Position numbers and translations under genes: made by a program. From Candidatus Moranbacteria bacterium CG10_big_fil_rev_8_21_14_0_10_35_21 (GTDB lineage Bacteria > Patescibacteriota > Minisyncoccia > Moranbacterales > UBA2206), in the NCBI GenBank assembly GCA_002773095.1, contig PFCG01000029.1, positions 1 through 53,991 of the forward strand: a DNA stretch of 53,991 nt, in the 5' to 3' direction. This document shows, in pieces, positions 4,273-29,606 of this stretch. Positions within the stretch are counted from its first letter, which is position 1; every line of letters begins with the position of its first letter. A model generated the notes under the pieces. That model ran no database searches. It saw only the letters and a list, made by a program, of their open reading frames with translations, and had not been told where the DNA came from.

Positions 4273-5451
4273 ATGTCTATACAATCAGGAGTTGGTTTTT
4301 CTTCCGATGCCGATGCAAAAAAAGCTGGTGGTGACGCTTGTCAAAAAGCGATTGAAAAATTGAAAGCACCAAAACTAATAATTGTTTTTTCGTCTGTGAG
4401 ATATGATCAAAAAGAATTGCTTGATGGAGTACGTTCGATATCTAAAGAAACGCCATTAATTGGATGCAGTGATGCGGGAGAAATTACTGGAGAAGGGCCA
4501 ACTAAGGGTGGCGTAGCAGTTATGGCTCTGAAATCAGATAGTATTGATTTTGTTATTGGAAAAGGAGGAGAAGTAGAGGGAAAAACCAAAGAAGCGGGAG
4601 CAGCTCTCGTTAGGGACATTATGTCTAGAGCTAAAGATAAAGTGAAGTGTTATATTATGCTTACAGATGTTCTAAAAGGCAATGGAGCGGAAATTGTTCG
4701 AGGATTGCAAGATGTGGCTGGAAAAGATGCTTTGATTTTTGGAGGAGCAGCGGGAGATGATTTTAAATTTAAAGAAACTTTTGTTTATTATAATGATACT
4801 GTTTTATCCTCTTCACTTGTGGGAGTTGGACTAGTGGGTGATTTTTCAATCGGATTAGGAGTAAGGCATGGATGGATTCCAATTGGTGCTCCAAAGACAG
4901 TAACCAAATCACATGGGGCGGTGGTTGAGGAGATTGATGGGAAGCCAGCAGTGAGTATTTATGAAGAATATTTTGGGAAAAAAGATGAAGATCTGCGAAA
5001 AGAGCCACTAGCCATAATGGCCATTACATATCCTCTAGGAATGACTGTTGAGGGTAGCACAGAATTTCTCATTAGAGATCCAATTTCGGTAGATGAAAAA
5101 GGAGCCATAACTTGTGCAGCAGAAATGCCAGAAGGCGCAACGGTTCGTTTAATGATTGGAAGTAAAGATGAAGCTATTATCGCCGCTAAAGATGCTGCTC
5201 AAAAAGCACTGGATCAACTTCAAGGAAAAACTCCAAAAGCTATTATATTGTTTAACTGTATCGCAAGAAGTAAATTATTTGGAGAGCATGCTAAGGACGA
5301 AATTGATGCTATTCAGTCTGTTTTAGGGAAAGAAGTGCCATTAATTGGGTTCTATACATATGGAGAGCAAGCTCCAATTGGAGGAGATCCTAATACTGCT
5401 TTTTCTTGTTTTCACAATGAAACAGCAGTTATTGTTGCTTTGGGAGAATGA
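4273..5451 (+). CDS. FIST N/C domain sensory protein
   Basis: LIGCSDAGEI, GGAAGD, HGWIP, NCIAR, GFYTYGE, FHNET motifs typical of FIST proteins. Confidence 0.9.
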   Translation: MSIQSGVGFSSDADAKKAGGDACQKAIEKLKAPKLIIVFSSVRYDQKELLDGVRSISKETPLIGCSDAGEITGEGPTKGGVAVMALKSDSIDFVIGKGGEVEGKTKEAGAALVRDIMSRAKDKVKCYIMLTDVLKGNGAEIVRGLQDVAGKDALIFGGAAGDDFKFKETFVYYNDTVLSSSLVGVGLVGDFSIGLGVRHGWIPIGAPKTVTKSHGAVVEEIDGKPAVSIYEEYFGKKDEDLRKEPLAIMAITYPLGMTVEGSTEFLIRDPISVDEKGAITCAAEMPEGATVRLMIGSKDEAIIAAKDAAQKALDQLQGKTPKAIILFNCIARSKLFGEHAKDEIDAIQSVLGKEVPLIGFYTYGEQAPIGGDPNTAFSCFHNETAVIVALGE

Positions 5452-12998: not shown

Positions 12999-13950
12999 GG
13001 ATATTCCTTATTTGGAAATTCTCAAAAAAAGCTGGAAAATAACCTGGAGCCATAAATATCTTTGGTGGCTTGGTCTTTTTATTTCTTTGGGTAGTTTAGG
13101 AACTTCCTTCAACTACTCTTCTGGAGATAATGAAATAATAACCGAGGCTGGACAAAAATTTATTCAATTTATAAATACCCACTATGCAATCTTTTTAACT
13201 CTTGTTTTATTGGTTTCGCTTTTATTTATTGGCTTAGCTCTTTTGAGTTTACTAGCCCGAGGAGGGTTGATACGTTCTGTAAAAAATATTTTAGAAGGAA
13301 AAAATGTTTCTTTGAAAGAAAGCTGGAAATTTGGCAGAGAAAATTTCCTAAAAATTTTTTCCATTACTCTTGTAATCGGGCTATTTATGTTTCTAGCTTT
13401 GCTCATTTTAATTGTTCCAATTGCCCTTCTTTTCTTTAACCATTCTTATTGGATTGGAGGCATTTTAACTTTTTTGGCTATCCTAATAGTTATTCCGTTG
13501 TTCATTTTGGCTTTTTTTATTCGTACTTTTGGTTATCTTTACGCAATTTTAGGTCGGCTTTCCATTTGGAGTTCTATCGAAAATGCTTATTTTATTTTTT
13601 CCAAGAACATCGGTCCTAGTTTCATTATGGGATTGATCTTTTTGCCCGTTAATATCTTAGTAGGTTTGGGATTACTAATTATGCTTATTCCCTTGGCTAT
13701 TGTTTTTATTATTTTGGGTGGATTACTTTATTTGGTTTTGCAAAAAACCGGAATTATTATTGCCGCTTCTATTGGAGTCTTAGTCTTTTTAATAATTATA
13801 TTAATAGTTAAATCAGCTTACGCTGTTTTTAATCAAACCGCTTGGCTTTTATTCTTCCAAGAAATCGCTTCTCCAAAAAAGGAAGAGCCAATTATAGAAA
13901 AAGTTTTGGAAATCGAACCTAAACCCATCCCCGAACCGGAAGTGGGGTAG
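12982..13950 (+). CDS. multi-pass membrane protein of unknown function
   Basis: 322 aa with about 6-7 hydrophobic helices; overlaps the end of ftsH. Confidence 0.75.
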   Translation: MKKQIKDIPYLEILKKSWKITWSHKYLWWLGLFISLGSLGTSFNYSSGDNEIITEAGQKFIQFINTHYAIFLTLVLLVSLLFIGLALLSLLARGGLIRSVKNILEGKNVSLKESWKFGRENFLKIFSITLVIGLFMFLALLILIVPIALLFFNHSYWIGGILTFLAILIVIPLFILAFFIRTFGYLYAILGRLSIWSSIENAYFIFSKNIGPSFIMGLIFLPVNILVGLGLLIMLIPLAIVFIILGGLLYLVLQKTGIIIAASIGVLVFLIIILIVKSAYAVFNQTAWLLFFQEIASPKKEEPIIEKVLEIEPKPIPEPEVG

Positions 13951-13963
13951 GATATAAACATTA

Positions 13964-13995
13964 AAAAACAACTCTAACTATTAAGAGTTGTTTTT
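13964..13995 (+). terminator. intrinsic terminator
   Basis: AAAAACAACTCT/AGAGTTGTTTTT hairpin. Confidence 0.65.
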
Positions 13996-16769: not shown

Positions 16770-18989
16770 TTAAACTTTTTTCAAAGGAGCGATGGAAGCG
16801 GATAATTTTTTTAAACCGCTTTTGGAAAAAGCCACCGTGAGCGTATCCCCTTGAGAAGCCACAATAATTCCTTCACCAAAAACTTCGTGAATTACTCGAT
16901 TGCCATCTTTAAAGCTCGTAACTTGTAACTCGTAACTCGTAACGCCATTAGATTTAGACTTACTATTTTTAATAAATTGAATTTCGTGTTTCGTTTTTAG
17001 TTTGTATTTTGAATTTTGGAATTTATTTGGAAATTGGAAATTGAGACTTGGAGTTTCCGCAGCTTGAATGAGATGCGACGGGATATCATCCAAAAATCTT
17101 GAGGGCGCGTTGCTTTGAGTAGAGCCGAAAATATTTCGTTCAGAAGTAAAAAGCAAATAAACTTTTTCCTTAGCCCGAGTTACCCCCACATACATCAACC
17201 TTCGCTCTTCTTCCATTTCACTTTGATTCAACATACTACGCGAATGAGGTAAAATTCCTTCTTCTAATCCAGCGATAAAAACTATTTTAAATTCTAATCC
17301 TTTGGCGCTGTGAAGAGTCATCAGATGCACTGCATCAATTTCTTGACTGATATCATCCGTATCAGAAACCAAAGCCACTTCTTCTAAAAATAATCTTAGG
17401 CCTTCAGCTCCGATATATTCGTCATATTTTTTAGCCACGGTTAATAATTCGTAGATATTTTCTTTTCTTATTTCACCTTCTTCTGTTCCATCCATCAACA
17501 TTTTTTCATAGCCAGAATGGGAAAAAACAAACCCAATCAAACCAACCATACTTTCTTTAGATATTTTTTCTTCCGCTCGACGAATAAAATCACAGAATTT
17601 TTTAATGGCATCTATTTTTGATTCATTTAATTTACTCTCGGGTCCTATTTTTAATCCAGCTTCAACTAAATTCAAACCTAGAGATTGAGCAAATTCCGTC
17701 CATTTTTTCAGACTCACCGGCCCAATGCTTCTTCTTGGTTCATTAATTATCCTTTCCAAAGAAACCAGGTCATCATGATTTTGAATTAGACGCAAATAAG
17801 CGACCATATCCTTAATTTCTTTTCTTTGATAAAATTTCAACCCACCTACTATTCGATAAGGGATAGAATTTTTTAACATCGACTCTTCTATAATTCGAGA
17901 TTGAGCGTTGGTCCGATAAAGCACCACAAAATCTCTGAATTTATATTTTTTTTCTCTCGTCCCGGTCAAAACTTCCGCCACCATAAATTCGGCTTCATCT
18001 TTTTCACTCAAGGCTTCATAGGAACTAATCAGATGTCCGCCTTTTTGTTCAGTCCAAATTTTTTTATCTTTACGATTAATGTTTTTGGAAATAATGCCAT
18101 AAGCCGCATCTAAAATATTTTGACTAGAGCGATAATTCTGTTCCAATTTGATGACTTTGGCTTCGGGATAATCTTTTTCAAAATCCAAAATGTTTTGAAT
18201 GTTGGCTCCCCGAAAAGAATAGACTCCTTGCCAATCATCTCCCACCACACAAATATTTTTATTTCGCTTGGCTATCATACTGATCAAATCGTATTGAGCA
18301 TGATTAGTATCTTGATATTCATCCACCATAATATATTTAAAAAATCTTTGATATTTTTCTAAAACTTCAGGAAAATCATGAAAAACTTTTACGGTGAACA
18401 TCAGAATATCGTCAAAATCCAAAGCATTTTGTTCTTTTAACTTTTTTTGATAAACCACATAAACTTTAGCCACAATTTCTTCATAATAGCCTCCTGCTTG
18501 TTTAGCAAAATCATCCGCTCCAATAAGATTGTTTTTAGCTTTAGAAATAGCCCCTAAAATAGATTTAGGTTTGAATTGTTTTAAGTCTATAGACAATTCT
18601 TTCATTGTTTTTTTTATCAGTCCTTGCTGATCTTGAGTATCAAAAATATTGAAAGATTTTTTGTAACCAATTTTCTCAATTTCGTGGCGTAAAATTTTGA
18701 CACAGATGGAATGGAAAGTTCCCACAATCGGAAAGTTGTCTCGAGAAAATTTTTCTTCGGAGAGCAATTTAATGATTCTTTCCTTCATTTCATTGGCTGC
18801 TTTGTTGGTAAAAGTCACAGCCAAAATATTTCTGGGATTAACTTTTTTTTCCTGAATTAAATAGGCCACTCGATGAGTGAGAGCTAAAGTTTTTCCGCTG
18901 CCCGCTCCGGCAATAATTAAGACCGCTCCTTCGGTGGTTTCCACTGCTTCGCGTTGCCGAGAATTAAGTTTTTCTAATAATTTATGCAT
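16770..18989 (-). CDS. pcrA: ATP-dependent DNA helicase PcrA/UvrD
   Basis: AGAGSGKT, TFTNKAA, VDEYQDTN, LEQNYRS, HSAKGLEF, EERRL; C-terminal Tudor-like domain. Confidence 0.96.
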   Translation of the reverse strand: MHKLLEKLNSRQREAVETTEGAVLIIAGAGSGKTLALTHRVAYLIQEKKVNPRNILAVTFTNKAANEMKERIIKLLSEEKFSRDNFPIVGTFHSICVKILRHEIEKIGYKKSFNIFDTQDQQGLIKKTMKELSIDLKQFKPKSILGAISKAKNNLIGADDFAKQAGGYYEEIVAKVYVVYQKKLKEQNALDFDDILMFTVKVFHDFPEVLEKYQRFFKYIMVDEYQDTNHAQYDLISMIAKRNKNICVVGDDWQGVYSFRGANIQNILDFEKDYPEAKVIKLEQNYRSSQNILDAAYGIISKNINRKDKKIWTEQKGGHLISSYEALSEKDEAEFMVAEVLTGTREKKYKFRDFVVLYRTNAQSRIIEESMLKNSIPYRIVGGLKFYQRKEIKDMVAYLRLIQNHDDLVSLERIINEPRRSIGPVSLKKWTEFAQSLGLNLVEAGLKIGPESKLNESKIDAIKKFCDFIRRAEEKISKESMVGLIGFVFSHSGYEKMLMDGTEEGEIRKENIYELLTVAKKYDEYIGAEGLRLFLEEVALVSDTDDISQEIDAVHLMTLHSAKGLEFKIVFIAGLEEGILPHSRSMLNQSEMEEERRLMYVGVTRAKEKVYLLFTSERNIFGSTQSNAPSRFLDDIPSHLIQAAETPSLNFQFPNKFQNSKYKLKTKHEIQFIKNSKSKSNGVTSYELQVTSFKDGNRVIHEVFGEGIIVASQGDTLTVAFSKSGLKKLSASIAPLKKV

Positions 18990-19048
18990 AACATTATTAT
19001 CTTAGCATACCAGAGACTGAAAAGTTTTGAAACAGCTGACTTTTTTTT

Positions 19049-19145
19049 ACCCCTCACCCAAACTATTCCGTGCGTGAGCACATAGTAGATGAATGGCAAA
19101 AACAAGTAGCGAATTACTCAGAAAGTAAGTTCGTGGGTGCGGGGT
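19049..19145. repeat. palindromic element with ACCCC...GGGGT termini
   Basis: ACCCCTCACCCA/TGGGTGCGGGGT terminal stem enclosing two inner hairpins. Confidence 0.6.
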
Positions 19146-19246
19146 TTGCTGGACAAATATCCTTTTGTATGCTAAGATATGTAGGTAATCAATAATAGCA
19201 GACATTGGTCTACGTCATGGCGGGACGAATGTTTAGCCGAAAAACT

Positions 19247-19516
19247 ATGTCTCTCACCAGCAAACAAAAGGAAAAAGTCACCAAAGATGTAAAAAGACAT
19301 GAGAAAGATTCTGGTTCGCCAGAATATCAAATTGCTCTTTTTACCGAAACAATAAAAAAACTTACCTCCCATTTGAAAAAAAATCCTAAAGACTTTCATT
19401 CTCGCCGAGGTTTACTCAAAATGGTTTCCAAACGAAAGAAATTAATGAGCTATCTGCAAAAGGTAGATGAAAAAACTTTCAAAAAAATTATAAAAAAACT
19501 TGATTTAAAAGGATAA
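19247..19516 (+). CDS. rpsO: 30S ribosomal protein S15
   Basis: HEKDSGSPEYQIA, HLKKNPKDFHSRRGL; ATG at 19247 gives 89 aa. Confidence 0.97.
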   Translation: MSLTSKQKEKVTKDVKRHEKDSGSPEYQIALFTETIKKLTSHLKKNPKDFHSRRGLLKMVSKRKKLMSYLQKVDEKTFKKIIKKLDLKG

Positions 19517-19525
19517 TCGAACTTT

Positions 19526-19547
19526 AAAAGCAGGGTAACCTGCTTTT
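19526..19547 (+). terminator. intrinsic terminator after rpsO
   Basis: AAAAGCAGG-GTAA-CCTGCTTTT. Confidence 0.7.
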
Positions 19548-19560
19548 GTTTTCAAACAAT

Positions 19561-19649
19561 TGTCATCCTGAACTTGATTCAGGATCTAATTACAAAACTA
19601 GTGATTACACTAAAACTCTATTAGATTCCGGATCAAGTCCGGAATGACA
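19561..19649. mobile_element. non-autonomous (empty) copy of the GIY-YIG-associated hairpin repeat element
   Basis: TGTCATCCTGAACTTGATTCAGGATCT ... AGATTCCGGATCAAGTCCGGAATGACA; left arm is 26/27 identical to the repeat at 28411. Confidence 0.75.
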
Positions 19650-19664
19650 AATAATATTAATTTT

Positions 19665-20162
19665 ATGACTATATTTAAAGAACAACGCGTAGGTATGTTG
19701 GTGGATATTCAAAATTTGTATTATTCCTCCAAAGTACTCTATGGTAAAAAAGTAAACTTCGGACAAATTTTAAAAGCCGGCATAGGAGACCGAAAACTGA
19801 TTCGGGCTATTGGTTATGGAATCAAGACCCTGGAACGCCAAGAAGAAAAGTTTTTTGAGGCCTTGGAAAAACAGGGATTTGAAGTGAGAACCAAGGATCT
19901 GCAAATTTTTCCCGGTGGAGCCAAAAAAGGTGATTGGGATGTAGGTATTGCAGTGGACGCTATTAAACTTTCCAAAAATTTGGATGTGATTATCTTGGTT
20001 TCCGGAGATGGAGATTATATTCCAGTCGTAGAATATCTGCAAAACACCGTCGGTTGTCGTGTGGAAGTAATCGCTTTTTCTGAATCAGCCAGCGCCAAAC
20101 TTATCATAGCCGCCGATTCTTTTATTGATATAAGTGATAATAAGAAAAAATTCCTTATTTAA
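19665..20162 (+). CDS. NYN domain protein (LabA/DUF88 family)
   Basis: VDIQNLY, KGDWDVGIAVD, VSGDGDY; the ATG at 19644 lies inside the repeat, so 19665 is preferred. Confidence 0.9.
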   Translation: MTIFKEQRVGMLVDIQNLYYSSKVLYGKKVNFGQILKAGIGDRKLIRAIGYGIKTLERQEEKFFEALEKQGFEVRTKDLQIFPGGAKKGDWDVGIAVDAIKLSKNLDVIILVSGDGDYIPVVEYLQNTVGCRVEVIAFSESASAKLIIAADSFIDISDNKKKFLI

Positions 20163-20170
20163 AAAGCTTG

Positions 20171-20201
20171 CCCCGTGATCCCGCCACGGGATTTTACGGG
20201 G
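20171..20201. repeat. short CCCCGTG...CGGGG palindrome
   Basis: CCCCGTGA-TCCCG-CCA-CGGGA-TT-TTACGGGG; termini resemble the rsmA insertion. Confidence 0.55.
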
Positions 20202-20218
20202 AAGTTTTTGATATAAGT

Positions 20219-20247
20219 TTGACAAATCATTCAAAAAAAGTTAGTAT
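20219..20247 (+). promoter_or_regulatory. probable pnp promoter
   Basis: TTGACA-17 bp-TAGTAT. Confidence 0.6.
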
Positions 20248-20272
20248 CAAATACTTAACAAATTAATTAAAA

Positions 20273-20416
20273 GCCTTTAACTAGTGCGTTAAGAGCATAA
20301 AGTTGGGAATATAAAGCGCAAAGCCACAATTTAGAACTTAACCCTTGAGTTTTGACTTGTAGTTTTGACTTTTTACCTTTCAGCTTTGAGCTTCCAAAGC
20401 GTCGCTAGCGTAAGGC
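20273..20416 (+). promoter_or_regulatory. long hairpin in the pnp 5' leader
   Basis: Imperfect nested pairing GCCTT/AAGGC, CTAG/CTAG, AAAGTTGGGA/TTTCAGCTTT, CAAAGCCACAA/TTGTAGTTTTG. Confidence 0.5.
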
Positions 20417-20428
20417 AGCACGTTTCAT

Positions 20429-22606
20429 ATGGAACAAAAAAAATGGTCTCTTCAGCTTGGAGAGAGAAACTTAGAGGTTGAAACTGGTCTTTTGGCTGGT
20501 CAAGCCAACGGAGCAGTAACTGTCAGATACGGTGATACTGTGGTTTTAGCTACCGCCGTGATGAGCAAAGGTGCTTCTAGAATAAGTGGTTACTTTCCTT
20601 TGATGGTTGATTTTGAGGAAAGATATTATGCCGCTGGAAAAATAAAAGGTTCAAGATTTATTAAAAGAGAAGGTCGTCCTTCTGACGCTTCTATTCTTTC
20701 TGGAAGAATGGTGGACAGAACTATTCGTCCGCTTTTTCCTTCCCGAATGAGAAATGATGTGCAAGTGGTTTTGACTGTTCTTTCTTATGATGGAGAAAAT
20801 GATCCAGCTCTAGTAGCCGTTATTGCAGCTTCCACTGCTCTTTCTATCTCTGATATTCCTTGGAATGGTCCTGTAGCCGCTGTGCGAGTGGGGAAAACAA
20901 CTGGGCCTGCCCTCAATGCTTCGCCAGCTCAACAGTCTGATAGCAAACTTGGTGACAAGCATAGCGATGCAGGCGGGGATTTAATTTTAAACCCAGTCAA
21001 TGGAGAAATTAGCGATGGTTCTTTGGACTTAGTGATTGCCGGAACTAAAAACAAAATAAATATGTTGGAAGCTGGAGCGAAAGAAATTCCTGAAGCAGAA
21101 ATTTTGAAAGCGCTTCAATTCGGTTCAGAATATGTCAAAAAAGTAGCTGAATTTGTTGAAAGTATTCAAAAAGAAATCGGAAAACCAAAATCAGAACCAG
21201 CTTTATTAAAAGGAACAGATGAATTTGAAGCTAAAGTGAAAGAAATTCTTTTGGCTGAAGGTTTAGCGACCGCTCTTTATGATCAAGATAAAAAGGTAGT
21301 GGAAGAAAAAACAGAAGCTACTAAAGAAAAAGTAAACCAGTATATTAAAGAAACCTTTACTGAAGATGTGGATAGATTGTTGGAAATTTCCGGAGAAGTT
21401 TTTGAAGAAGTCTCTGACGAGATTGTTCATCAAAACGTTCTAGAAAAAGAGCAACGACCAGATGGACGCAAACTGAATGAAATTAGGAAAATTACTTGCC
21501 AAACTGGAATTTTACCAAGAACTCATGGCACCGGGCTCTTCACTCGTGGAGAAACTCAGGCTTTGACCGTGACAACTCTTGGATCTCCTGGAGATGAGCA
21601 AATCATCGATACTATGGAGGTGGATATGAAAAAAAGATATATTCATCACTACAATTTCCCGCCTTTTTCTGTGGGAGAAACAAAACCCATGCGTGGGCCA
21701 GGCCGACGTGAAATAGGTCATGGTGCACTGGCAGAAAAAGCCTTAATTCCGGTTCTTCCTTCTAAGGAAGATTTCCCTTACACTATTCTTCTGGTTTCAG
21801 AAATTCTTTCTTCTAATGGATCTTCTTCTATGGCTTCTACTTGTGGCTCTACTTTATCCTTAATGGACGCTGGAGTGCCTATTAAGCGACCTGTCAGTGG
21901 AATTGCTATGGGAATTATTGTGGGCGCTACGGATGATAAGTTTAAAGTTTTGACTGATATTCAAGGATTAGAAGATCATTATGGTGATATGGATTTTAAG
22001 GTGGCCGGAACAGAAAACGGAATTACCGCTCTGCAAATGGATGTAAAATTAGCTGGAGTGACTCTTCCAATGTTGGAGGCAGTCTTGAAGCAATCGTATG
22101 AAAATCGTTTGGAAATTTTGGAAAAGATAAAAACCGCTATTGCAGAACCAAGAACTGAAATGTCACAATATGCACCTAGAATTATCACTATGCACATTAA
22201 TCCGGAAAAAATCAGAAATGTTATTGGAGCTGGAGGAAAAATCATCAATGAAATTATTGATGAAACTGGAGTGCAGATTGATATTGAAGATGATGGGTCA
22301 GTTTTCATTACTTCTGTTGATGCTGCTTCCGCTAAAAAAGCTCAGGAGTGGATTCATAGCCTTACCCGGGAAGTTAAGGCCGGAGAAACTTTTGAAGCTA
22401 AGGTAATTAAACTAATGGACTTTGGAGCTTTTGCTGAAATTCTTCCAGGGCAAGATGGATTAATCCATATTTCTGAAATGGCAGACAAGCGAGTGGAAAA
22501 AGTGGAAGATGTTGTTAAAGTAGGCGACATTGTGCCAGTTAAGGTCAAAGAAATTGATAGTCAAGGAAGAATTAGCCTTTCTATGAAAGCAGCTATTAAA
22601 AAGTAG
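20429..22606 (+). CDS. pnp: polyribonucleotide nucleotidyltransferase (PNPase)
   Basis: Two RNase PH domains (RREIGHGALAE, SNGSSSMAS, DMDFKVAGT) plus KH and S1. Confidence 0.98.
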   Translation: MEQKKWSLQLGERNLEVETGLLAGQANGAVTVRYGDTVVLATAVMSKGASRISGYFPLMVDFEERYYAAGKIKGSRFIKREGRPSDASILSGRMVDRTIRPLFPSRMRNDVQVVLTVLSYDGENDPALVAVIAASTALSISDIPWNGPVAAVRVGKTTGPALNASPAQQSDSKLGDKHSDAGGDLILNPVNGEISDGSLDLVIAGTKNKINMLEAGAKEIPEAEILKALQFGSEYVKKVAEFVESIQKEIGKPKSEPALLKGTDEFEAKVKEILLAEGLATALYDQDKKVVEEKTEATKEKVNQYIKETFTEDVDRLLEISGEVFEEVSDEIVHQNVLEKEQRPDGRKLNEIRKITCQTGILPRTHGTGLFTRGETQALTVTTLGSPGDEQIIDTMEVDMKKRYIHHYNFPPFSVGETKPMRGPGRREIGHGALAEKALIPVLPSKEDFPYTILLVSEILSSNGSSSMASTCGSTLSLMDAGVPIKRPVSGIAMGIIVGATDDKFKVLTDIQGLEDHYGDMDFKVAGTENGITALQMDVKLAGVTLPMLEAVLKQSYENRLEILEKIKTAIAEPRTEMSQYAPRIITMHINPEKIRNVIGAGGKIINEIIDETGVQIDIEDDGSVFITSVDAASAKKAQEWIHSLTREVKAGETFEAKVIKLMDFGAFAEILPGQDGLIHISEMADKRVEKVEDVVKVGDIVPVKVKEIDSQGRISLSMKAAIKK

Positions 22607-22680
22607 TAGCCAAAAATTAACTTTTGTTGTAGAATAGAATTATAAAAAAATAGTTCTATTTTATTTTTAATTTTAAAAAA

Positions 22681-23925
22681 ATGTTTGGACAAAAACAAAA
22701 AAACCTGCAACCAACTACTCCAGCTAACCAAAAAATAAATCTTGATCAAAGGAAAGATTTCAAGGTGAACGATATTGAAGTTCATACTTTGGAAAAAGAT
22801 TTAAAAAATTATAAATATTCCGGTGTCACTCCGACTGAAATGAAGCCATCTCCTCCACCGGTTGAAAAAAAGCTTCCAGAAAGTCAGCCGATGAAACCGC
22901 TAAATAAACCCACTCCTAGTCCTTTTTTAAATTTCTCCCAACCTACCCAACCACCCAAACCATCTGTTCCAAAAGCCCCAGAGAAAGTTATGGAAAATTT
23001 TTCTCAAGCGAAACCAACCCCTACACCCATAGCTAAGCCCCCTGTTTTTAGTGCTCTTAGAAACTTACCTCAGGCGAAACCAACTACAAAGCCTCCTGTT
23101 TTTTCTGCCTCTAAAAATATGCCTCCTCAAGATAAAAAAACATTAGAAAAGCCAAAAAAGGAAGGTAACTTAGCTAAAATTATAACTACTACAATCATTG
23201 TTTTGGTTATTTTAATCGTTGGAGTAGGCGCTTATTATTTCTGGATTACTCGCCAAAAAATAGAAGAGGTAGTTATTAATCAACCAGAGGAAAATCCTAT
23301 TTCCGAGCCAGAAATTATTCCAGAAGATAAACCGGAAGAGACTGTCCTTAATGAAAATTATCCTAATTATCTAATGATTGATTTGGCAATTGAAGCCTCC
23401 ACTGCTCAAACTATAAAAGAAACCATTAAAAAAGTTAAAGCTTCTGGATTGGAAACACCTATTGAATTTATTGCAAGCGATGCAGAAAATAATCCAATCT
23501 CCTTCTCAAAATTTTCTGAAAATTTAGGTATTAAATTTTCTAGTGAAGTTTTAACCGGGTTAGATGATACTACTTTCAGTTTATTTATTCAGAATGATGC
23601 TTCGGAAAATATTGGATTAGGAATGGCTCTTTATTTTACAGATAAGACTGGACTAAAAACCACTATGCAAAAAGAAGAAGCTTTCTTAATTAATGAATTG
23701 AAGCCTTTCTTAAATTTAGCCATGATTTATGATACAATCAAAGAAGCCTCTTTCAGCTCAGCTAAATATGACGGAAGAGACATTAGATATATTAATATTA
23801 TTAGTCCCGAAGAGTTAACTATCGATTACGCAGTTAACGGTGAGAAGAAATTATTTATTGCTACTACTAAGCAATCTCTGGAAGGAATCCTACAAAAGAT
23901 GGTTTTTGACATAGAATCTGAATAA
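22681..23925 (+). CDS. Pro-rich single-pass membrane protein
   Basis: Pro/Lys-rich N-terminus with a duplicated QAKPT..KPPVFSA motif, one TM helix, acidic C-terminal domain. Confidence 0.75.
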   Translation: MFGQKQKNLQPTTPANQKINLDQRKDFKVNDIEVHTLEKDLKNYKYSGVTPTEMKPSPPPVEKKLPESQPMKPLNKPTPSPFLNFSQPTQPPKPSVPKAPEKVMENFSQAKPTPTPIAKPPVFSALRNLPQAKPTTKPPVFSASKNMPPQDKKTLEKPKKEGNLAKIITTTIIVLVILIVGVGAYYFWITRQKIEEVVINQPEENPISEPEIIPEDKPEETVLNENYPNYLMIDLAIEASTAQTIKETIKKVKASGLETPIEFIASDAENNPISFSKFSENLGIKFSSEVLTGLDDTTFSLFIQNDASENIGLGMALYFTDKTGLKTTMQKEEAFLINELKPFLNLAMIYDTIKEASFSSAKYDGRDIRYINIISPEELTIDYAVNGEKKLFIATTKQSLEGILQKMVFDIESE

Positions 23926-23927
23926 AC

Positions 23928-23936
23928 TGTGGATAA
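23928..23936 (-). promoter_or_regulatory. DnaA box
   Basis: TGTGGATAA (reverse complement of TTATCCACA). Confidence 0.35.
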
Positions 23937-24078
23937 CTTATGCCAAAATGAATTTTTCCTGAAAAAAAGAGATTTTCTTTCCAAATCTGACTAAAAAAGT
24001 GTATTTTCTATTTTTAAGAATTACAAGCTGAGTTGTTCCATAAAATACCTTTTTTAAGCCTTTTGCACGACTATCTAA

Positions 24079-24107
24079 TTGACCATTTGCTAAAAATTTG
24101 CTATAAT
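24079..24107 (+). promoter_or_regulatory. strong promoter with no downstream ORF
   Basis: TTGACC-17 bp-TATAAT with TGn extended -10. Confidence 0.6.
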
Positions 24108-24141
24108 AAAAACATCAGTAAATTAAAAACCTTACCTTAGC

Positions 24142-24202
24142 AACAGCGAAAGAATTTCAATCGCAATTTCCCCCTATTTGCGATTGAAATTCTCTTGCTG
24201 TT
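24142..24202 (+). ncRNA. candidate sRNA hairpin
   Basis: ~25-bp stem with a perfect 16-bp core AGAATTTCAATCGCAA/TTGCGATTGAAATTCT. Confidence 0.35.
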
Positions 24203-24465
24203 CAAAAATTGAGATGAACCATCTTAATTACCCTTACTAACAAAGGGAAACAAAACAAAAACAAAAAAGTTTTTATAAAATAAAAATAAAAATAAAAATT
24301 TGTTCTTTCAAAAAAAGGTATAACCAGAGAACGGTTAGAGAAAAACGTGTTGAAAATGTTAGACCAATACGTTACGGACGCATATTAATAAAATATATAT
24401 GCATTATAATTTTTGATGCTTTCACCCAAGCTAAAAAATTTCCATGTCATATATTATAATATGTT

Positions 24466-24553
24466 AAACACTGGGGCGCCGAGCCACTTATTAATTTTTT
24501 GGGGCAATAAGCGCCCTGGTTTCCAATCAAAGTCACCAGGAAGGTGTTTTTTT
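24466..24553 (+). ncRNA. candidate structured RNA / leader upstream of yraN
   Basis: GC-rich island in AT-rich DNA: AAACAC/GTGTTT, GGGCGC/GCGCCC, CCTGGT/ACCAGG, then a T run; begins just after TATAAT (24455-24460). Confidence 0.4.
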
Positions 24554-24580
24554 ATTTGCCAAAAATGATATAATGCCCCT

Positions 24581-24976
24581 ATGGATAATGAAATAAAAAC
24601 AAAATCTATTGGGGAAACTGGAGAAGAAATTTCAGCCAATTTTTTAAAAAAGCACGGTTATACAATTTTAGCTATGAACTTTCAAAACAATTCCGGTCGC
24701 CGCTTAGGAGAAATTGACATTATCGCTCGCGATTCAGAAACTAGTGAAATTGTTTTTGTGGAAGTAAAATCTCGAGATATAAAAAAATACGCCCACACTC
24801 TTCCAGAAGAGAATATTAATCCTCAAAAGCTGAGAAAGCTTTCTAAAATAGCCTACTATTACCTTAGAGAAAGGACTAATTTAGACGCTCCCCACCGTTT
24901 TGACGCCCTATCCGTTTGGATTGACACCGATTTAAAAAACGCCAAAATAAAACATTTGAAAAATATCTTCTTTTAG
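24581..24976 (+). CDS. yraN: YraN family (UPF0102) nuclease-like protein
   Basis: GETGE..A..L, GEIDIIA, VFVEVKSR, RFD. Confidence 0.9.
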   Translation: MDNEIKTKSIGETGEEISANFLKKHGYTILAMNFQNNSGRRLGEIDIIARDSETSEIVFVEVKSRDIKKYAHTLPEENINPQKLRKLSKIAYYYLRERTNLDAPHRFDALSVWIDTDLKNAKIKHLKNIFF

Positions 24977-25025
24977 ACATTTCTTTCATTCTTTGCTAAA
25001 CTAAACTTATCATTAAATTAATTTT

Positions 25026-25382
25026 ATGCCATTAGACAAAAAAACTCTTGAGGAATTAAAGCAATCTCTCCTGAAGGAACAAGGTGATTTGGAAAAAAGC
25101 TTGGGAAAAATCGCTAAGCCGGTCGACAAAAAAACTGGAGATTATGACACTACCTTTGAAAACTTAGGCACCGATCGAAACGATAATGCCACTGAAATAG
25201 AACAATATACTGATAATTTGCCAGTAGAACTAACGTTGGAAAAAAATCTTCAGTCTGTTTTAGAGGCGCTTAAAAGAATAGAGAAAGGTACTTATGGATT
25301 TTGCGAAAATTGCCAAAAAGAAATTGAAGTTGAAAGATTAAAAGCTAACCCATCTGCCGAGACTTGTGTAAAATGCGGCTAG
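25026..25382 (+). CDS. TraR/DksA C4-type zinc finger protein
   Basis: ALKRIEKGTYGFCENC..I..ERL.ANP.A.TCVKC. Confidence 0.9.
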   Translation: MPLDKKTLEELKQSLLKEQGDLEKSLGKIAKPVDKKTGDYDTTFENLGTDRNDNATEIEQYTDNLPVELTLEKNLQSVLEALKRIEKGTYGFCENCQKEIEVERLKANPSAETCVKCG

Positions 25383-25393
25383 ATAGAATTTTG

Positions 25394-25807
25394 ATGAAAA
25401 TAAAAAATAAAAAAATACTTTTATTCTTGCTTTTTTTTTTAATCTTTAGCGACCAGCTAGTTAAATATTTTATCCGCCTCAGGGGCGGTTTTTATGTTTG
25501 TAATCCAAATTTGGCTTGGGGAGCCTCCCTCCCTCCATATTTATTTTTGATTTTGTGGATTGGTATCATTGTAGGGCTTTTATATTTTTTCCAAACATCT
25601 AAAAATAAATGGGCTTTTATATTAATTTTTTCTGGAGCTTTTTCTAATTTATTAGATCGCTTAATTCATGGTTGCGTGATTGATTTTATAGATTTAGGCT
25701 TTTTTTTTACCAGCCTCAAGGGCTGGCCAATTTTTAATTTAGCTGATTCATTAATAGTTTTAGGATTAATTATTATTATTTTAAAAAAAAACAAAAATGT
25801 CAGCTAA
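25394..25807 (+). CDS. lspA: signal peptidase II
   Basis: DQLVK, GAFSNLLDR, VIDFI, WPIFNLAD. Confidence 0.85.
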   Translation: MKIKNKKILLFLLFFLIFSDQLVKYFIRLRGGFYVCNPNLAWGASLPPYLFLILWIGIIVGLLYFFQTSKNKWAFILIFSGAFSNLLDRLIHGCVIDFIDLGFFFTSLKGWPIFNLADSLIVLGLIIIILKKNKNVS

Positions 25808-27329
25808 AAAAATACTTTCCGCCGCTACGGTTGGACTGAGAAGCGAAATTATCGAAGTGGAAGTGGATGTTATTTCTTCCGGCCTGCATCAATTTAATAT
25901 CGTCGGTCTGCCTGACGCTGCGGTTAAGGAATCGCGCGATCGTGTGGCTTCCGCGATTAAAAACAGTCGTTTCCGTCCGCCTCACCAATGTGGTCGCATA
26001 ACGGTTAACTTGGCTCCAGCTGATTTGAAAAAAGAAGGGCCAATCTATGATTTACCTATCGCTTTAGGCTTTCTTTTGGCCACAAATCAAATTAAGTTTG
26101 ATTTTCAGAACAAACTTTTTTTAGGAGAAGTTTCCTTAGATGGCAGTGTTCGCCCAGTTAAAGGCATTCTGCCAATGGCTCTTTTAGCTAAAGAAAGAAA
26201 TATTCCAGAAATTTATGTTCCTGAAGAAAATGCCGAAGAAGCTTCGGTGGTGGAAGGTATTTCAGTTTTTCCAGTTAAAAATATTTTAGCCCTTTACTCT
26301 CATTTAGATGGGCAAACATTAATTTCACCGGCCCCAAAAGCCGTCTTGGAAGATTTATTTAAAGAAGAAGAATATTTGACCGACATGAAATTTATTAAAG
26401 GACAAGAACAAGCTAAACGGGCTTTGGAAATCGCTGCTGCCGGAGGACATAATGTTATTCTCAACGGCCCACCAGGGTCAGGCAAAACTATGTTAGCCAA
26501 AACCCTTCCATCTATTCTTCCCCGCTTAACTACCGCAGAAGCTTTGGAAATAACTAAAATTTTTTCGGTGGCCGGTCAATTACTGAGAAAAAAATCTTTA
26601 ATTACCAGTCGACAATTCCGTTCGCCCCATCACAGTGCTAGTGCGGTTTCCTTGGTAGGAGGCGGAACTTATCCGAAACCAGGAGAAATCAGTCTAGCTC
26701 ATCGAGGGATTTTATTTTTGGATGAATTCCCAGAATTTTCCCGAGTAGTTTTGGAAAACCTCAGACAACCATTAGAAGACGGAAAAATAACCGTTTCTCG
26801 AGCTCAAGGCACTTTGGAATTTCCGGCTAGTTTTACATTGATAGCGGCTATGAATCCCTGCCCTTGTGGGAATGCCACTGATCCAGAAAAATCCTGCTCC
26901 TGCAATCCGGCGCAAATCATAAAATACCAAAGAAAAATATCCGGACCAATATTGGATCGCATTGATTTACACGTGGAAGTGCCTCGTATTAAATTTGAAA
27001 AATTTTCTCAAGATGAAACTTCTTTAGAAAATTCTTTTTCTATTCGCCAGCGAGTAGAAGCAGCCAGAAAAACACAGGCTTCCAGATTTGAGCAATCTCC
27101 TATTTTTTGTAATAGCGAAATGGGCAGTCAGGAAATTAAAAATTTCTGTTACTTAAGCCCAGATTGCATTGAATTGATGAAAAAAGCCGTTTCCAGCCTT
27201 CATTTGAGCGCCCGAGCTTACTATCGTATAATTAAGGTTGCTCGTACTATAGCCGATTTATCGGAAGGTCCGGCTATTCAGCCAGAGCATATCGCTGAAG
27301 CCATCCAATATCGGTTTAAGACGGACTAA
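25797..27329 (+). CDS. comM: YifB/ComM Mg-chelatase-like AAA+ ATPase
   Basis: VGLPDAAVKESRDR, NLAPADLKKEG, GPPGSGKT, PGEISLAHRGILFLDE, NPCPCG. Confidence 0.93.
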   Translation: MSAKKILSAATVGLRSEIIEVEVDVISSGLHQFNIVGLPDAAVKESRDRVASAIKNSRFRPPHQCGRITVNLAPADLKKEGPIYDLPIALGFLLATNQIKFDFQNKLFLGEVSLDGSVRPVKGILPMALLAKERNIPEIYVPEENAEEASVVEGISVFPVKNILALYSHLDGQTLISPAPKAVLEDLFKEEEYLTDMKFIKGQEQAKRALEIAAAGGHNVILNGPPGSGKTMLAKTLPSILPRLTTAEALEITKIFSVAGQLLRKKSLITSRQFRSPHHSASAVSLVGGGTYPKPGEISLAHRGILFLDEFPEFSRVVLENLRQPLEDGKITVSRAQGTLEFPASFTLIAAMNPCPCGNATDPEKSCSCNPAQIIKYQRKISGPILDRIDLHVEVPRIKFEKFSQDETSLENSFSIRQRVEAARKTQASRFEQSPIFCNSEMGSQEIKNFCYLSPDCIELMKKAVSSLHLSARAYYRIIKVARTIADLSEGPAIQPEHIAEAIQYRFKTD

Positions 27330-27374
27330 GCTTTTTTAAATTTCCAATTTTTAATTTTTTCAGCCTACAGCTGA

Positions 27375-27389
27375 TCCGCCTTTGGCGGA
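27375..27389. repeat. short palindrome TCCGCC-TTT-GGCGGA
   Basis: Same motif as 46392-46406 and 50591-50605. Confidence 0.6.
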
Positions 27390-27424
27390 AAATAAATCTA
27401 AATTTTTGAATTTTTAAACATTAG

Positions 27425-28396
27425 AAATTTGGATTTATTTATAAAATTATAAAATTAAAAATTATAAAATTTGGAGTCTTTTTTATATTAATAGTCTTAG
27501 TTGGCTACGTCTTTTTTTATTTATTTACCCATTCCGGCCGAAATTTATCCTTCGCTGTTCCCAAAACTGTTTCTCTTGATGACAATGGACTGTCTTTCCG
27601 AAAAAATACTTCTGCGGAGACAATTGAAGAATTTTTGCAAGAAAATAAATTAAACATTAGCGACTACGATCAAATCATTCCGGCCAGAGAAACGCCGATT
27701 TTTCCGGAAATAAATATTGAAATCCGCCGAGCTTTGAAAATAAAAATATCCGCCGACAAACAAGAAAAAGAATTCTACACTTTGTCCGACACTGTCGGCA
27801 ATGCTCTTGCTGAAAGCCAAACGAAACTGGGCGAAGATGATTTGATTGATCCGAAAATTTCCTCGCCATTGAAAAATAATTTGAAAATTACTGTTACACG
27901 TGTGGAAATCAGAGAAGAAACCGTGCAAAAATCCATTGATTTCAAAACAATTGCCAAAGAAGATGATTCATTGGGCTGGCGAATAAAAAAGATAACCACT
28001 CCCGGAAAAAAAGGGACGGAAGAAATAAAATATAAAGTGGTTTCACACGATGGCAAAGAAATTTCCCGAAAAATATTGAATAGAAAAACTGTTCAAAATC
28101 CAACTGATGAAATCGTGGTGCAAGGAACTTATATGAAAACCGGAAAAGCCAACACCGGACAAGGAACGTGGTATGCTTGGAAAGGAGGACTCTTTGCCGC
28201 CAGCGCTACTCTTCCGAGGGGAAGTTATGCTAAGGTTACCAATATGGAAAACGGCAAAACAGTCGTGGTGCAAATCAACGACTATGGCCCCCAAGGCAAA
28301 GGGCGTATTATTGACTTGGACAAAGTGGCCTTCACCAAAATCTCCAACATCGGCGCGGGAGTAATTGGAGTGAAAGTTGAACAGATACTTAATTGA
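27425..28396 (+). CDS. membrane-anchored ubiquitin-like (DUF348) + G5 + RlpA/DPBB domain protein
   Basis: G5 (TPGKKG..K..Y..V..DGKEISR..PTDEIVVQGT) and RlpA-like (AAS.TLP.GS..KVTN..NGK.V.V.INDYGP..GRIIDL); frame open from 27425 with a TM helix, but the first canonical start is TTG at 27635. Confidence 0.8.
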   Translation, partial: KFGFIYKIIKLKIIKFGVFFILIVLVGYVFFYLFTHSGRNLSFAVPKTVSLDDNGLSFRKNTSAETIEEFLQENKLNISDYDQIIPARETPIFPEINIEIRRALKIKISADKQEKEFYTLSDTVGNALAESQTKLGEDDLIDPKISSPLKNNLKITVTRVEIREETVQKSIDFKTIAKEDDSLGWRIKKITTPGKKGTEEIKYKVVSHDGKEISRKILNRKTVQNPTDEIVVQGTYMKTGKANTGQGTWYAWKGGLFAASATLPRGSYAKVTNMENGKTVVVQINDYGPQGKGRIIDLDKVAFTKISNIGAGVIGVKVEQILN

Positions 28397-28410
28397 CAAA
28401 ATAACTATTT

Positions 28411-28758
28411 TGTCATCCTGAACTTGTTTCAGGATCTCAAAAACATGAAACAATATTGCGTTTACATCAACACAAATAAAAATAATACAACTCTTTATAT
28501 CGGGGTGACTAATAATTTACCAAGGAGAATGTATGAGCATAAAAATAAAATAACTAAGGGTTTTACAGCAAAATATAATGTTAATAAATTAGTATACTTT
28601 GAGCAAACTGAAAATATATTGAGCGCCATTCAAAGGGAAAAACAGCTAAAAAATTGGCATAGGGAATGGAAAATAAATCTTATTAATAGTATTAATCCAA
28701 AATTGGAAGATCTAAATAAATCTTTATTAGAAGATCCTGAAACAAGTTCAGGATGACA
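28411..28758. mobile_element. GIY-YIG cassette bounded by perfect 27-bp inverted repeats
   Basis: TGTCATCCTGAACTTGTTTCAGGATCT (28411-28437) and exact reverse complement (28732-28758). Confidence 0.8.
28445..28756 (+). CDS. small GIY-YIG nuclease (UPF0213-like)
   Basis: YCVYI..TLYIGVTNNL.RRMYEHK..FTAKY..LVYFE..AIQREKQLKNW.REWK; stop codon lies inside the right repeat. Confidence 0.92.
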   Translation: MKQYCVYINTNKNNTTLYIGVTNNLPRRMYEHKNKITKGFTAKYNVNKLVYFEQTENILSAIQREKQLKNWHREWKINLINSINPKLEDLNKSLLEDPETSSG

Positions 28759-28763
28759 TTATT

Positions 28764-29606
28764 ATGAAACATATACCCAAAAAAAATCTTGGTCAAAATT
28801 TTCTCAAAACCAATTCTATCGTGAAAAGGATTATTGAGTCTGCCAATTTAAGCGCGGATGATTTTGTCATTGAAGTTGGGCCCGGGGAAGGAGTTTTGAC
28901 AGAGGAGCTTGCAAAAAAGGCGGGAAAAGTTTTGGCGATTGAAATTGACCATACGCTCATCAAACCGCTTCAAAAAAAATTTGAGAATAAAAAAAATGTT
29001 GAAATAATCAACGCCGACATACTAAAAATAAATCTTCCGGAGCTACTTGGACACGAAATGTCCAAGTATAAAGTAATTGCGAATTTGCCTTACTATATTA
29101 CTTCGCCGATTATCCGACTGTTTTTGGAAACCGAAACTCCGCCTCAAGAAATGATTTTGATGGTGCAAAAAGAAGTGGCGGAAAGGATTGTGGCTTCACC
29201 CAGTGAAATTCCGGCTGAAAGCCGGAGCGCGAAGCGCATTTCACGGGGTAAGCCCGGGCAAATGAGCATCCTGGCTGTTTCGGTGCAATACTATGCCAAA
29301 CCGGAAATTCTTTTTGAAGTGGGCAAAGAAAATTTTGATCCGATTCCGGAAGTGGATAGCGCGGTCATCAAAATTACAAATTCCGAATGCGGAATTCCGA
29401 ATGCGGAAACAAAAAAATTTTTTCGCGTGGTCAAGGCGGGATTTTCCGCGAAAAGAAAAACTTTGATCAATAATTTATCAAGCAGTTTGCATTTGGAAAA
29501 GAAGGCTGTGGAAGAAAAAATAAAAGCCGTCGGTTTGAAGCCGACGGCTAGAGCTCAGGAGCTGAGCGTAGATGATTGGGAAAAAATTACAGTTTTACTT
29601 ATTTGA
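28764..29606 (+). CDS. rsmA: 16S rRNA dimethyltransferase RsmA/KsgA
   Basis: KKNLGQNFL, EVGPGEG.LT, ANLPYYITSP, MVQKEVAER, P.PEVDSA. Confidence 0.96.
   Translation: MKHIPKKNLGQNFLKTNSIVKRIIESANLSADDFVIEVGPGEGVLTEELAKKAGKVLAIEIDHTLIKPLQKKFENKKNVEIINADILKINLPELLGHEMSKYKVIANLPYYITSPIIRLFLETETPPQEMILMVQKEVAERIVASPSEIPAESRSAKRISRGKPGQMSILAVSVQYYAKPEILFEVGKENFDPIPEVDSAVIKITNSECGIPNAETKKFFRVVKAGFSAKRKTLINNLSSSLHLEKKAVEEKIKAVGLKPTARAQELSVDDWEKITVLLI

Follow-up and report, generated by a model that had tools for sequence, protein, structure and literature searches.

Three groups of described systems are closest to the hairpins analysed here: (i) the NTS and SRM motifs, with their Ssn nucleases; (ii) the CGTC-tagged REPs; and (iii) the REPIN/RAYT and IS200/IS605 systems. 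As regards the first group, single-domain GIY-YIG ssn genes are flanked by NTS (an oriented subset of dRS3) and SRM motifs (Chenal et al., 2025, Nat Commun 16:2388; PMC11893778). The nuclease SsnA binds the hairpin as ssDNA only and cuts a few nucleotides upstream of it, and the Neisseria enzyme bound neither RNA nor dsDNA. In Neisseria, the three nucleotides before the palindrome govern cleavage, the C after the palindrome governs binding, and activity was lost when the stem was altered in a way that preserved the hairpin. As consensus for NTS, CGTCATTCCCGCGMAVGCGGGAATCYRG is given, and the SRM search pattern is a heuristic derived from 29 genomes (Chenal et al., 2025). In the main text of that study, the restriction of incoming ssDNA is the sole role demonstrated for Ssn/NTS, no transposition by Ssn is shown, and Patescibacteria are not mentioned. 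The authors themselves remarked on the IS-like layout NTS-ssnA-NTS and on the analogy with REP/RAYT.

The CGTC-tagged REPs, whose tag is often TGTC, were defined by Di Nocera et al. (2013, BMC Genomics 14:522; PMC3733652). Their stems, of 8-9 bp, open with A-T pairs; the loop measures 4-5 nt and the tail 3 nt. The usual form is a dimer with a 1-100-bp spacer, frequently a heterodimer, and some copies lie within genes and keep the reading frame. The class includes the Neisseria dRS3 repeats and the Rickettsia repeats RPE-4 and RPE-6. In that paper the heterodimers were explained by the avoidance of long cruciforms, and no dedicated enzyme was found; for CGTC REPs, dRS3 and some Rickettsia RPEs, a partner enzyme was not known until the Ssn work of 2025.

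In the REPIN/RAYT and IS200/IS605 systems, the hairpin is recognised by an enzyme specific for single strands, which cuts next to it, a layout shared by the Ssn/hairpin system. Apart from the two papers cited above, whose supplements may list related genomes, no further literature was found on GIY-YIG proteins together with REPs, RPEs or in-frame palindromes in Patescibacteria.

The locus described here belongs to a 753-kb, 35% GC assembly (94.85% complete; hereafter G000), and the window, i.e., the whole stretch of 53,991 nt that was analysed, is its contig 20. The element is of an already-known kind, in a new host group. Like the Ssn/NTS system, it has a GIY-YIG gene (about 94-100 aa in the published cases) between inverted hairpins, with many further copies of the hairpins, or arms, in the genome; the HGTCAT/HGTCWY tail and the C after the palindrome are also shared, both being invariant in the G000 arms. 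It differs from that system in three respects: (i) the G000 stems are AT-richer and fall outside the SRM search pattern; (ii) three of the seven G000 doublets (pairs of inverted arms) lie inside genes, versus 2% of NTS in N. meningitidis (Chenal et al., 2025); and (iii) the host has a 753-kb, 35% GC genome, with Candidatus Moraniibacteriota MAGs as the source of the closest named ssn homologues. The TGTC tag, stem, loop, tail and inverted heterodimer organisation of the G000 arms all fit the CGTC REPs; unlike in the class as described in 2013, here a GIY-YIG gene carries the same arms, as in Chenal et al. (2025). With REPIN/RAYT and IS200/IS605 the locus has in common the short inverted hairpin doublets and an associated gene flanked by the same hairpins. 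Nevertheless, the enzyme of REPIN/RAYT is a HUH tyrosine transposase and its tag is GTAG, whereas the flanked gene here encodes a GIY-YIG protein, no Y1_Tnp is found in G000, and the tag is TGTC.

Anatomy of the doublet and its neighbouring genes

The doublet is located between rpsO (19205..19516, + strand; ribosomal protein S15; Pfam Ribosomal_S15, E 1.3e-31) and a gene with a NYN domain (19665..20162, + strand, counted from its conserved start; Pfam NYN, E 1.2e-32), with a PNPase gene downstream. The sequence-only reading, which had seen the letters and their open reading frames, placed two inverted 27-mers 35 bp apart between these genes, and direct reading confirms their coordinates: two 27-nt hairpins stand in inverted orientation, with their TGTCA ends facing outward and 35 nt between them. 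The left arm (19561..19587, + strand; TGTCATCCTGAACTTGATTCAGGATCT) is composed of the TGTCA tail, a 7-bp stem TCCTGAA/TTCAGGA (8 bp if the A-T pair is counted), the loop CTTGA and a 3' TCT, and its stem is assigned to class A. The spacer (19588..19622; 35 nt, AT-rich) loosely resembles those of the same type of doublet in contig 11 of G000 and in the genomes G008 and G022. The right arm (19623..19649, - strand; TGTCATTCCGGACTTGATCCGGAATCT in minus-strand reading) follows the same plan with the stem TTCCGGA/TCCGGAA, of class B. The arm fits the CGTC-REP format, as TGTC plus ATCCTGAA, loop CTTGA, TTCAGGAT and then CT(A). When the 101-nt doublet region was folded as DNA, a value of -18.7 kcal/mol was obtained (z -6.4), equalled by 0 of 200 shuffles.

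The same plan is found in the arm pair around the GIY-YIG gene at 28411-28758. Within the window, the left 26-mer occurs in three places with up to three mismatches, namely at 19561 (no mismatch), 28411 (+ strand, one) and 28733-28758 (- strand, one), and none was found in 100 shuffles. A single loop base separates the left arm from the arm at 28411, CTTGA versus CTTGT, as had been claimed. For the right arm, no second copy is present in the window at up to three mismatches, with zero expected from shuffles. Its relation to the left arm is also as first described: 6 of 26 positions differ, all of them in the stem, three on each side and with pairing kept throughout, while the tail TGTCAT, the loop CTTGA and the 3' ATCT are identical in both arms.

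Directly to the left of the doublet stands a terminator-like hairpin of rpsO (19526..19552, + strand), read from the sequence as GCAGG GTAA CCTGC followed by a T-run; it is absent from the listing given by the consensus terminator scan, and relatives that lack the doublet have a similar hairpin at this place. On the other side, the doublet ends 15 nt before the NYN start. The conserved start of this gene is the second ATG (19665): for 25 of 28 relatives, the alignment starts there, at residue 4 to 10 of the long ORF. The other ATG, at 19644, comes from the ATGACA tail of the right arm and lies in frame, seven codons upstream of 19665, and a gene caller would probably over-extend the NYN gene to it.

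The hairpin family and its GIY-YIG genes

A search of the 753-kb genome with pairing-blind anchors (GTCA N7 CTTGN N7) yielded 28 matches, of which 13 have 7/7 Watson-Crick pairs, one has six, one has five and 13 have four or fewer; the fifteen paired matches represent eight stem sequences. The more demanding pattern TGTCA N7 CTTG N8 TCT gave 14 matches in G000, with 0 in the reversed control. In the 14 aligned arms, the tail TGTCAT, the loop CTTG, the 3' ATCT and the C of column 26, directly after the palindrome, are all invariant. In the set of 14 arms collected blind to structure, 98.4% of cells are paired and four of the eight pairs are changed on both sides, a result matched by 0 of 500 shuffles. 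The hairpins are under selection for pairing together with fixed tail, loop and 3' bases, a finding in support of the earlier claim that selection acts on hairpin structure plus tail and loop sequence.

Tail-outward doublets number seven in G000 (contigs 1, 11, 17, 18, 20, 25 and 32), so that the doublet of the window has six further companions elsewhere in the genome. All seven have unlike stems, and in four of them the distance from TCT to AGA is just 4-5 nt; the explanation of heterodimers by avoidance of long cruciforms (Di Nocera et al., 2013) fits these doublets too. That unlike stems are obligatory was considered and rejected, given the same-stem doublets (homodimers), with 18-nt spacers, that are present in genome G030.

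In the rpsO-NYN doublet, two widespread stem classes, TCCTGAA and TTCCGGA, are combined into a heterodimer; the second class, that of the right arm, is found with identical letters in many other genera. The unit as a whole, with its spacer, matches contig 11 of G000 at 83% and contig 3 of G008 at 88%, with unrelated flanks. Ten TCCTGAA/TTCCGGR doublets, drawn from five genomes, were aligned: their arms are near-invariant, their spacers loosely alike and their flanks unrelated; since these doublets were chosen by their likeness to that of the window, the shared type is partly a selection effect. Because TCCTGAA and TTCCGGR arms are found together, as one unit, at further loci and in further genera, the three swaps did not arise at rpsO-NYN and, on this comparison, are to be read as family-level covariation, not as events at this site. 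The earlier idea that the doublet is a diverged copy of the 28411-28758 pair must consequently be abandoned, its right arm being of the separate class TTCCGGA. No consistent target-site duplication was seen by eye at eight element borders.

With the published SRM pattern, 0 matches were found in G000, both rpsO-NYN arms included, which means that the AT-richer variant escapes the pattern and that surveys built on it undercount the family. In a first set of loci scanned with it, the pattern had two matches, the non-hairpin L047 and an arm at the orthologous site of G014. The latter, the left arm of G014 at rpsO-NYN (TGTCATTCCCGCGAAAGCGGGAATCCAG), agrees with the NTS consensus except for the first base.

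The gene-bearing element of the window consists of (i) a left arm (28411..28437, + strand; class A, loop CTTGT); (ii) an ssn-like gene (28445..28756, + strand) that encodes a single-domain GIY-YIG protein of 103 aa; and (iii) a right arm (28732..28758, - strand), 100% complementary to the left one and 294 nt away from it. The GIY-YIG match (Pfam, E 1.2e-17), with those for rpsO and NYN given above, bears out the gene identities first proposed from the letters. The gene runs into its right arm, 28732-28758, which supplies its last codons (DPETSSG) and the TGA stop; most ssn homologues end before these arm-encoded C-terminal residues. A second ssn element (L088:1030-1420) is located on contig 18 of G000, between the ATP synthase b and delta (OSCP) genes, with longer, imperfect stems in its arms (TGTCATCCTGAGCGAAGTCGAAGGATCT type). 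These two, the window copy and its contig 18 paralogue, are the hairpin-flanked ssn genes of G000: out of its 12 small GIY-YIG ORFs, only the two ssn-like ones show close mutual likeness and such arms. The NCBIfam search of the ssn-like protein gave weak matches to group I intron endonucleases only, below the cut-off, and the PDB sequence search gave no match.

In relatives, 20 ssn homologues were found, 41-70% identical; 18 of them have, by eye, a [TC]GTCAT-tailed palindrome within 70 nt upstream, several being canonical NTS, and among those flanked by canonical NTS the identity is 53-60%. Another 80 homologues come from named genomes of many phyla (51-74% identical). A tailed hairpin lies within 400 nt of 64 of these 80 genes, and on both sides of 41. 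At the same 80 loci, the SRM pattern is found in 21 and CTTG loops in 26, and some of the CTTG-loop arms read TCCTGAA CTTGT TTCAGGA, letter for letter. A protein-recognised ssDNA/RNA substrate had been proposed for the arms. The ssDNA half of this proposal agrees with the recognition published for the family (Chenal et al., 2025), while RNA is an unlikely substrate, since Neisseria SsnA bound neither RNA nor dsDNA. The loss of activity after the stem change in Neisseria also means that one nuclease serving at least eight stem variants is not assured.

To compare arms and genes, 41 genomes were scanned with the CTTG-loop pattern, and an ssn-like gene was counted at E 1e-10 or better. At least one match is present in 25 of the 41 genomes, with up to 32 per genome versus 0-1 in the reversed control. 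Arms are found in 14 of the 15 genomes with an ssn-like gene versus 11 of the 26 without, an association that is descriptive only, because relatives are not independent. Genomes G017 (19 arms) and G040 (8 arms), 98-99% complete, have no ssn-like gene at E 1e-10 or better; here the arms may have outlasted the nuclease or may rely on a diverged form of it.

Insertions in genes and at orthologous sites

Three of the seven G000 doublets (L083:1112-1376, contig 17; L084:1001-1058, contig 18; L086:1001-1060, contig 32), together with one single arm, lie in frame inside genes for (i) a Mur ligase; (ii) a class I tRNA synthetase; and (iii) a B12-binding/radical SAM protein. They add 9-20 residues (e.g., CHPELVSGS...MLKQVQHD), and most orthologues have no inserts. 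The Mur ligase carries two, CHPELVSGS from the single arm and CHHELVSGSKKIPDQVRNDS from a doublet; the insert of the tRNA synthetase is CHPELVSGSQEMLKQVQHD, and that of the B12-binding/radical SAM protein is CHPELDSGSNLNSGSEAGMT. The Mur ligase inserts are missing from 28 of 30 aligned orthologues, and those of the tRNA synthetase from 27 of 30. At the point of the first Mur ligase insert, which G000 alone possesses, a 20-residue doublet is found in G002 (after ...LKLK), and the second insert is exclusive to G000 among the 30 aligned. For the tRNA synthetase, 30 proteins were aligned, and only those of G000, G022 and G034 have arm-derived inserts, all three in the same loop. As read from these alignments, the in-gene inserts are insertion events, and the fact that the same points were struck in different genera suggests hot spots or tolerated loops. 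The intragenic CGTC REPs and RPEs offer a parallel (Di Nocera et al., 2013).

The order rpsO-then-NYN was compared at 29 loci, those of G000 and 28 relatives, one per genus, within the same family or order. The doublet is far from fixed at this place: it is present in five of the 29 genomes (G000, G014, G022, G019 and G020), which do not form a clade. These five doublets comprise four arm combinations, with different spacers, and all lie between the terminator and the NYN start. The other 24 genomes lack it, many of them with gaps of 0-57 nt, and in G012 the G000 site is seen in its empty state (...ATCAAT|AAACATT). On a tree of PNPase from 30 genomes (a single gene, with a quick search), the five holders require five changes, at least four of them forced by well-supported branches; the sister of G000, G004, has an empty site (support 98), and an AU test on this one gene rejected the five holders as one clade (p 0.002). 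As judged from the compared loci, repeated gain or loss of doublets at orthologous sites has taken place. This scattered presence and the insertions inside genes together point to an inserted REPIN-like element, not to a regulator. Of the two outcomes that the sequence-only reading had named as speaking against it, a doublet fixed across distant relatives and a lack of further copies, neither was observed.

Four groundwater or aquifer metagenome runs were mapped to 18900-20500. Contigs stop at the arms, contigs of 90-91 nt cover the doublet exactly, and, with the contigs breaking in this way, none from the four runs spans an empty site. The spacer is skipped in two joints, 19587 to 19623 (X7) and 19588 to 19620 (X3), whose shorter side is only 27-31 nt; they probably come from short-spacer doublets elsewhere. 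In the region 19548-19655 of the window, the summed contig depth over the arms is 50-1363 versus about 1-20 in the flanks, in the four runs, a far higher depth which indicates that these hairpins are common to many organisms of those communities. The metagenome contigs with the NYN protein come from relatives (59-87% identical), none at strain level. In 76 of these contigs with enough upstream DNA, three doublets and four single TGTCA-tailed arms were counted within 260 nt of the NYN start, as a lower bound since the script demands perfect stems; one further match is doubtful.

How the doublet may have arrived and spread

In our judgement, the rpsO-NYN doublet is very probably an SRM/TGTC-REP heterodimer that arrived by insertion. 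The proposed course of events is as follows: (i) the doublet would have been inserted between the rpsO terminator and the NYN start; (ii) each arm, when single-stranded, would form a hairpin of 7-8 bp, in which the 5' tail is always TGTCAT, the loop is CTTGW and the palindrome is directly followed by a C; (iii) by homology, the arms would be bound by the Ssn-type nuclease of 28445-28756 and by its contig 18 paralogue; (iv) as in the Neisseria work, the nuclease would nick ssDNA a few bases 5' of the tail; and (v) Ssn would spread the doublets in the way in which RAYTs are thought to spread REPINs. As the tails point outward, two cuts are predicted, one per strand and just outside the doublet, which would mark the doublet as a unit. 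That Ssn itself mobilises the doublets is a tentative proposal, to which we give slightly less than an even chance. The description of the doublet as a non-autonomous, REPIN-like copy thus holds with regard to insertion and to repeated gain or loss, whereas mobilisation by the GIY-YIG protein is a step that we infer. At rpsO-NYN the doublet is probably a passenger, with the extra upstream in-frame ATG as its sole visible effect.

A bolder reading, which is speculative and on balance doubtful, would regard the SRM doublets as genuine transposable elements, non-autonomous and moved by a GIY-YIG ssDNA nuclease. They would then represent a second, independently evolved system of REPIN/RAYT type, one that repeatedly hits the same intergenic and loop-coding sites in ultra-small genomes of Patescibacteria type and survives in essential genes as translated inserts of 9-20 residues.

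Other explanations are less probable. According to one of them, the hairpins are Ssn sites that mark cuts in incoming ssDNA and that spread or persist by recombination, transformation or another enzyme, and not by Ssn. This is unlikely but has some weight, as ssDNA restriction is the only role of Ssn/NTS with experimental proof in the main text of Chenal et al. (2025), and as arms occur in the 11 of 26 genomes without a detected ssn-like gene. The Y1 transposase family PF01797 has 0 matches in G000 (at 94.85% completeness), so that no alternative mobiliser is evident, though some other enzyme may act. Against this explanation, the gene-bearing units are bounded by tail-outward arms exactly as the doublets are. 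Furthermore, the entry of doublets into coding sequences and the reuse of sites across genera resemble targeted insertion, not drift.

It is improbable that the doublet is what remains, in situ, of a complete ssn element whose gene was deleted at rpsO-NYN. Gene-bearing elements and doublets do share the orientation of their arms, and elements with unlike arms exist (e.g., in G022, with TTCCGGG and TTCTGAA), but the spacer holds no ssn-derived sequence beyond the arm-consensus TTAGAT. Moreover, four of the seven G000 doublets leave just those 4-5 nt between TCT and AGA, and the same doublet unit is found at unrelated loci. The possibility that the spacer keeps the 3' end of an ssn gene was rejected on the grounds that the shared TTAGAT belongs to the arm consensus of all doublets.

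In Escherichia coli, the rpsO-pnp leader contains a processed hairpin. By analogy, the doublet might act in cis on the rpsO/NYN/pnp cluster, as a regulatory structure in RNA or DNA, and both its stable fold and its position after the rpsO terminator, 15 nt before the NYN start and with PNPase downstream, speak for such a role. This explanation is very improbable, however, as 24 of the 29 genomes with the same gene order lack the doublet, its holders are not a clade, and the doublet unit also stands at unrelated loci and inside ORFs. Nor is there an Rfam match: at a permissive threshold, the region 19000-29000 gave only sub-threshold plant and animal miRNA and snoRNA models, the best of them (a plant miRNA model) with 23.8 bits versus a threshold of 74. 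Lastly, chance likeness or ordinary terminators, for which nothing speaks beyond the AT-rich context, can practically be dismissed, considering that zero matches are expected from shuffles, that the reversed-pattern control gives 0-1 per genome versus up to 32 real matches, and that both arms lack a T-run, with a canonical terminator already upstream of the doublet.

Taking up the reading of the doublet as an inserted heterodimer, G000 is a natural test bed for the mobilisation of hairpins by Ssn, since it combines two ssn genes with seven doublets and no fewer than eight stem variants; further assets are orthologous sites that are filled or empty depending on the genus, and in-frame inserts in three enzymes. 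For annotation, the same reading explains the recurrent odd peptides (CHPELVSGS) in proteins of small genomes and the spurious upstream start of the NYN gene.

The remaining ten small GIY-YIG ORFs of G000 belong to a different subfamily. Five of them are immediately followed, on the same strand, by a tRNA gene (Ser, Asn, Asp, Val, Lys); they lie on contigs 12 (23374-23616), 13 (4845-5090), 15 (152-409), 17 (97-351) and 19 (13752-13988). Upstream of at least two of these ORFs (contigs 12 and 15), a duplicated 5' piece of the tRNA precedes GC-rich hairpins, and the GIY-YIG ORF of contig 24 is likewise flanked by a duplicated tRNA-like start. From this arrangement, the tRNA-adjacent ORFs look like a separate, tRNA-targeting element.
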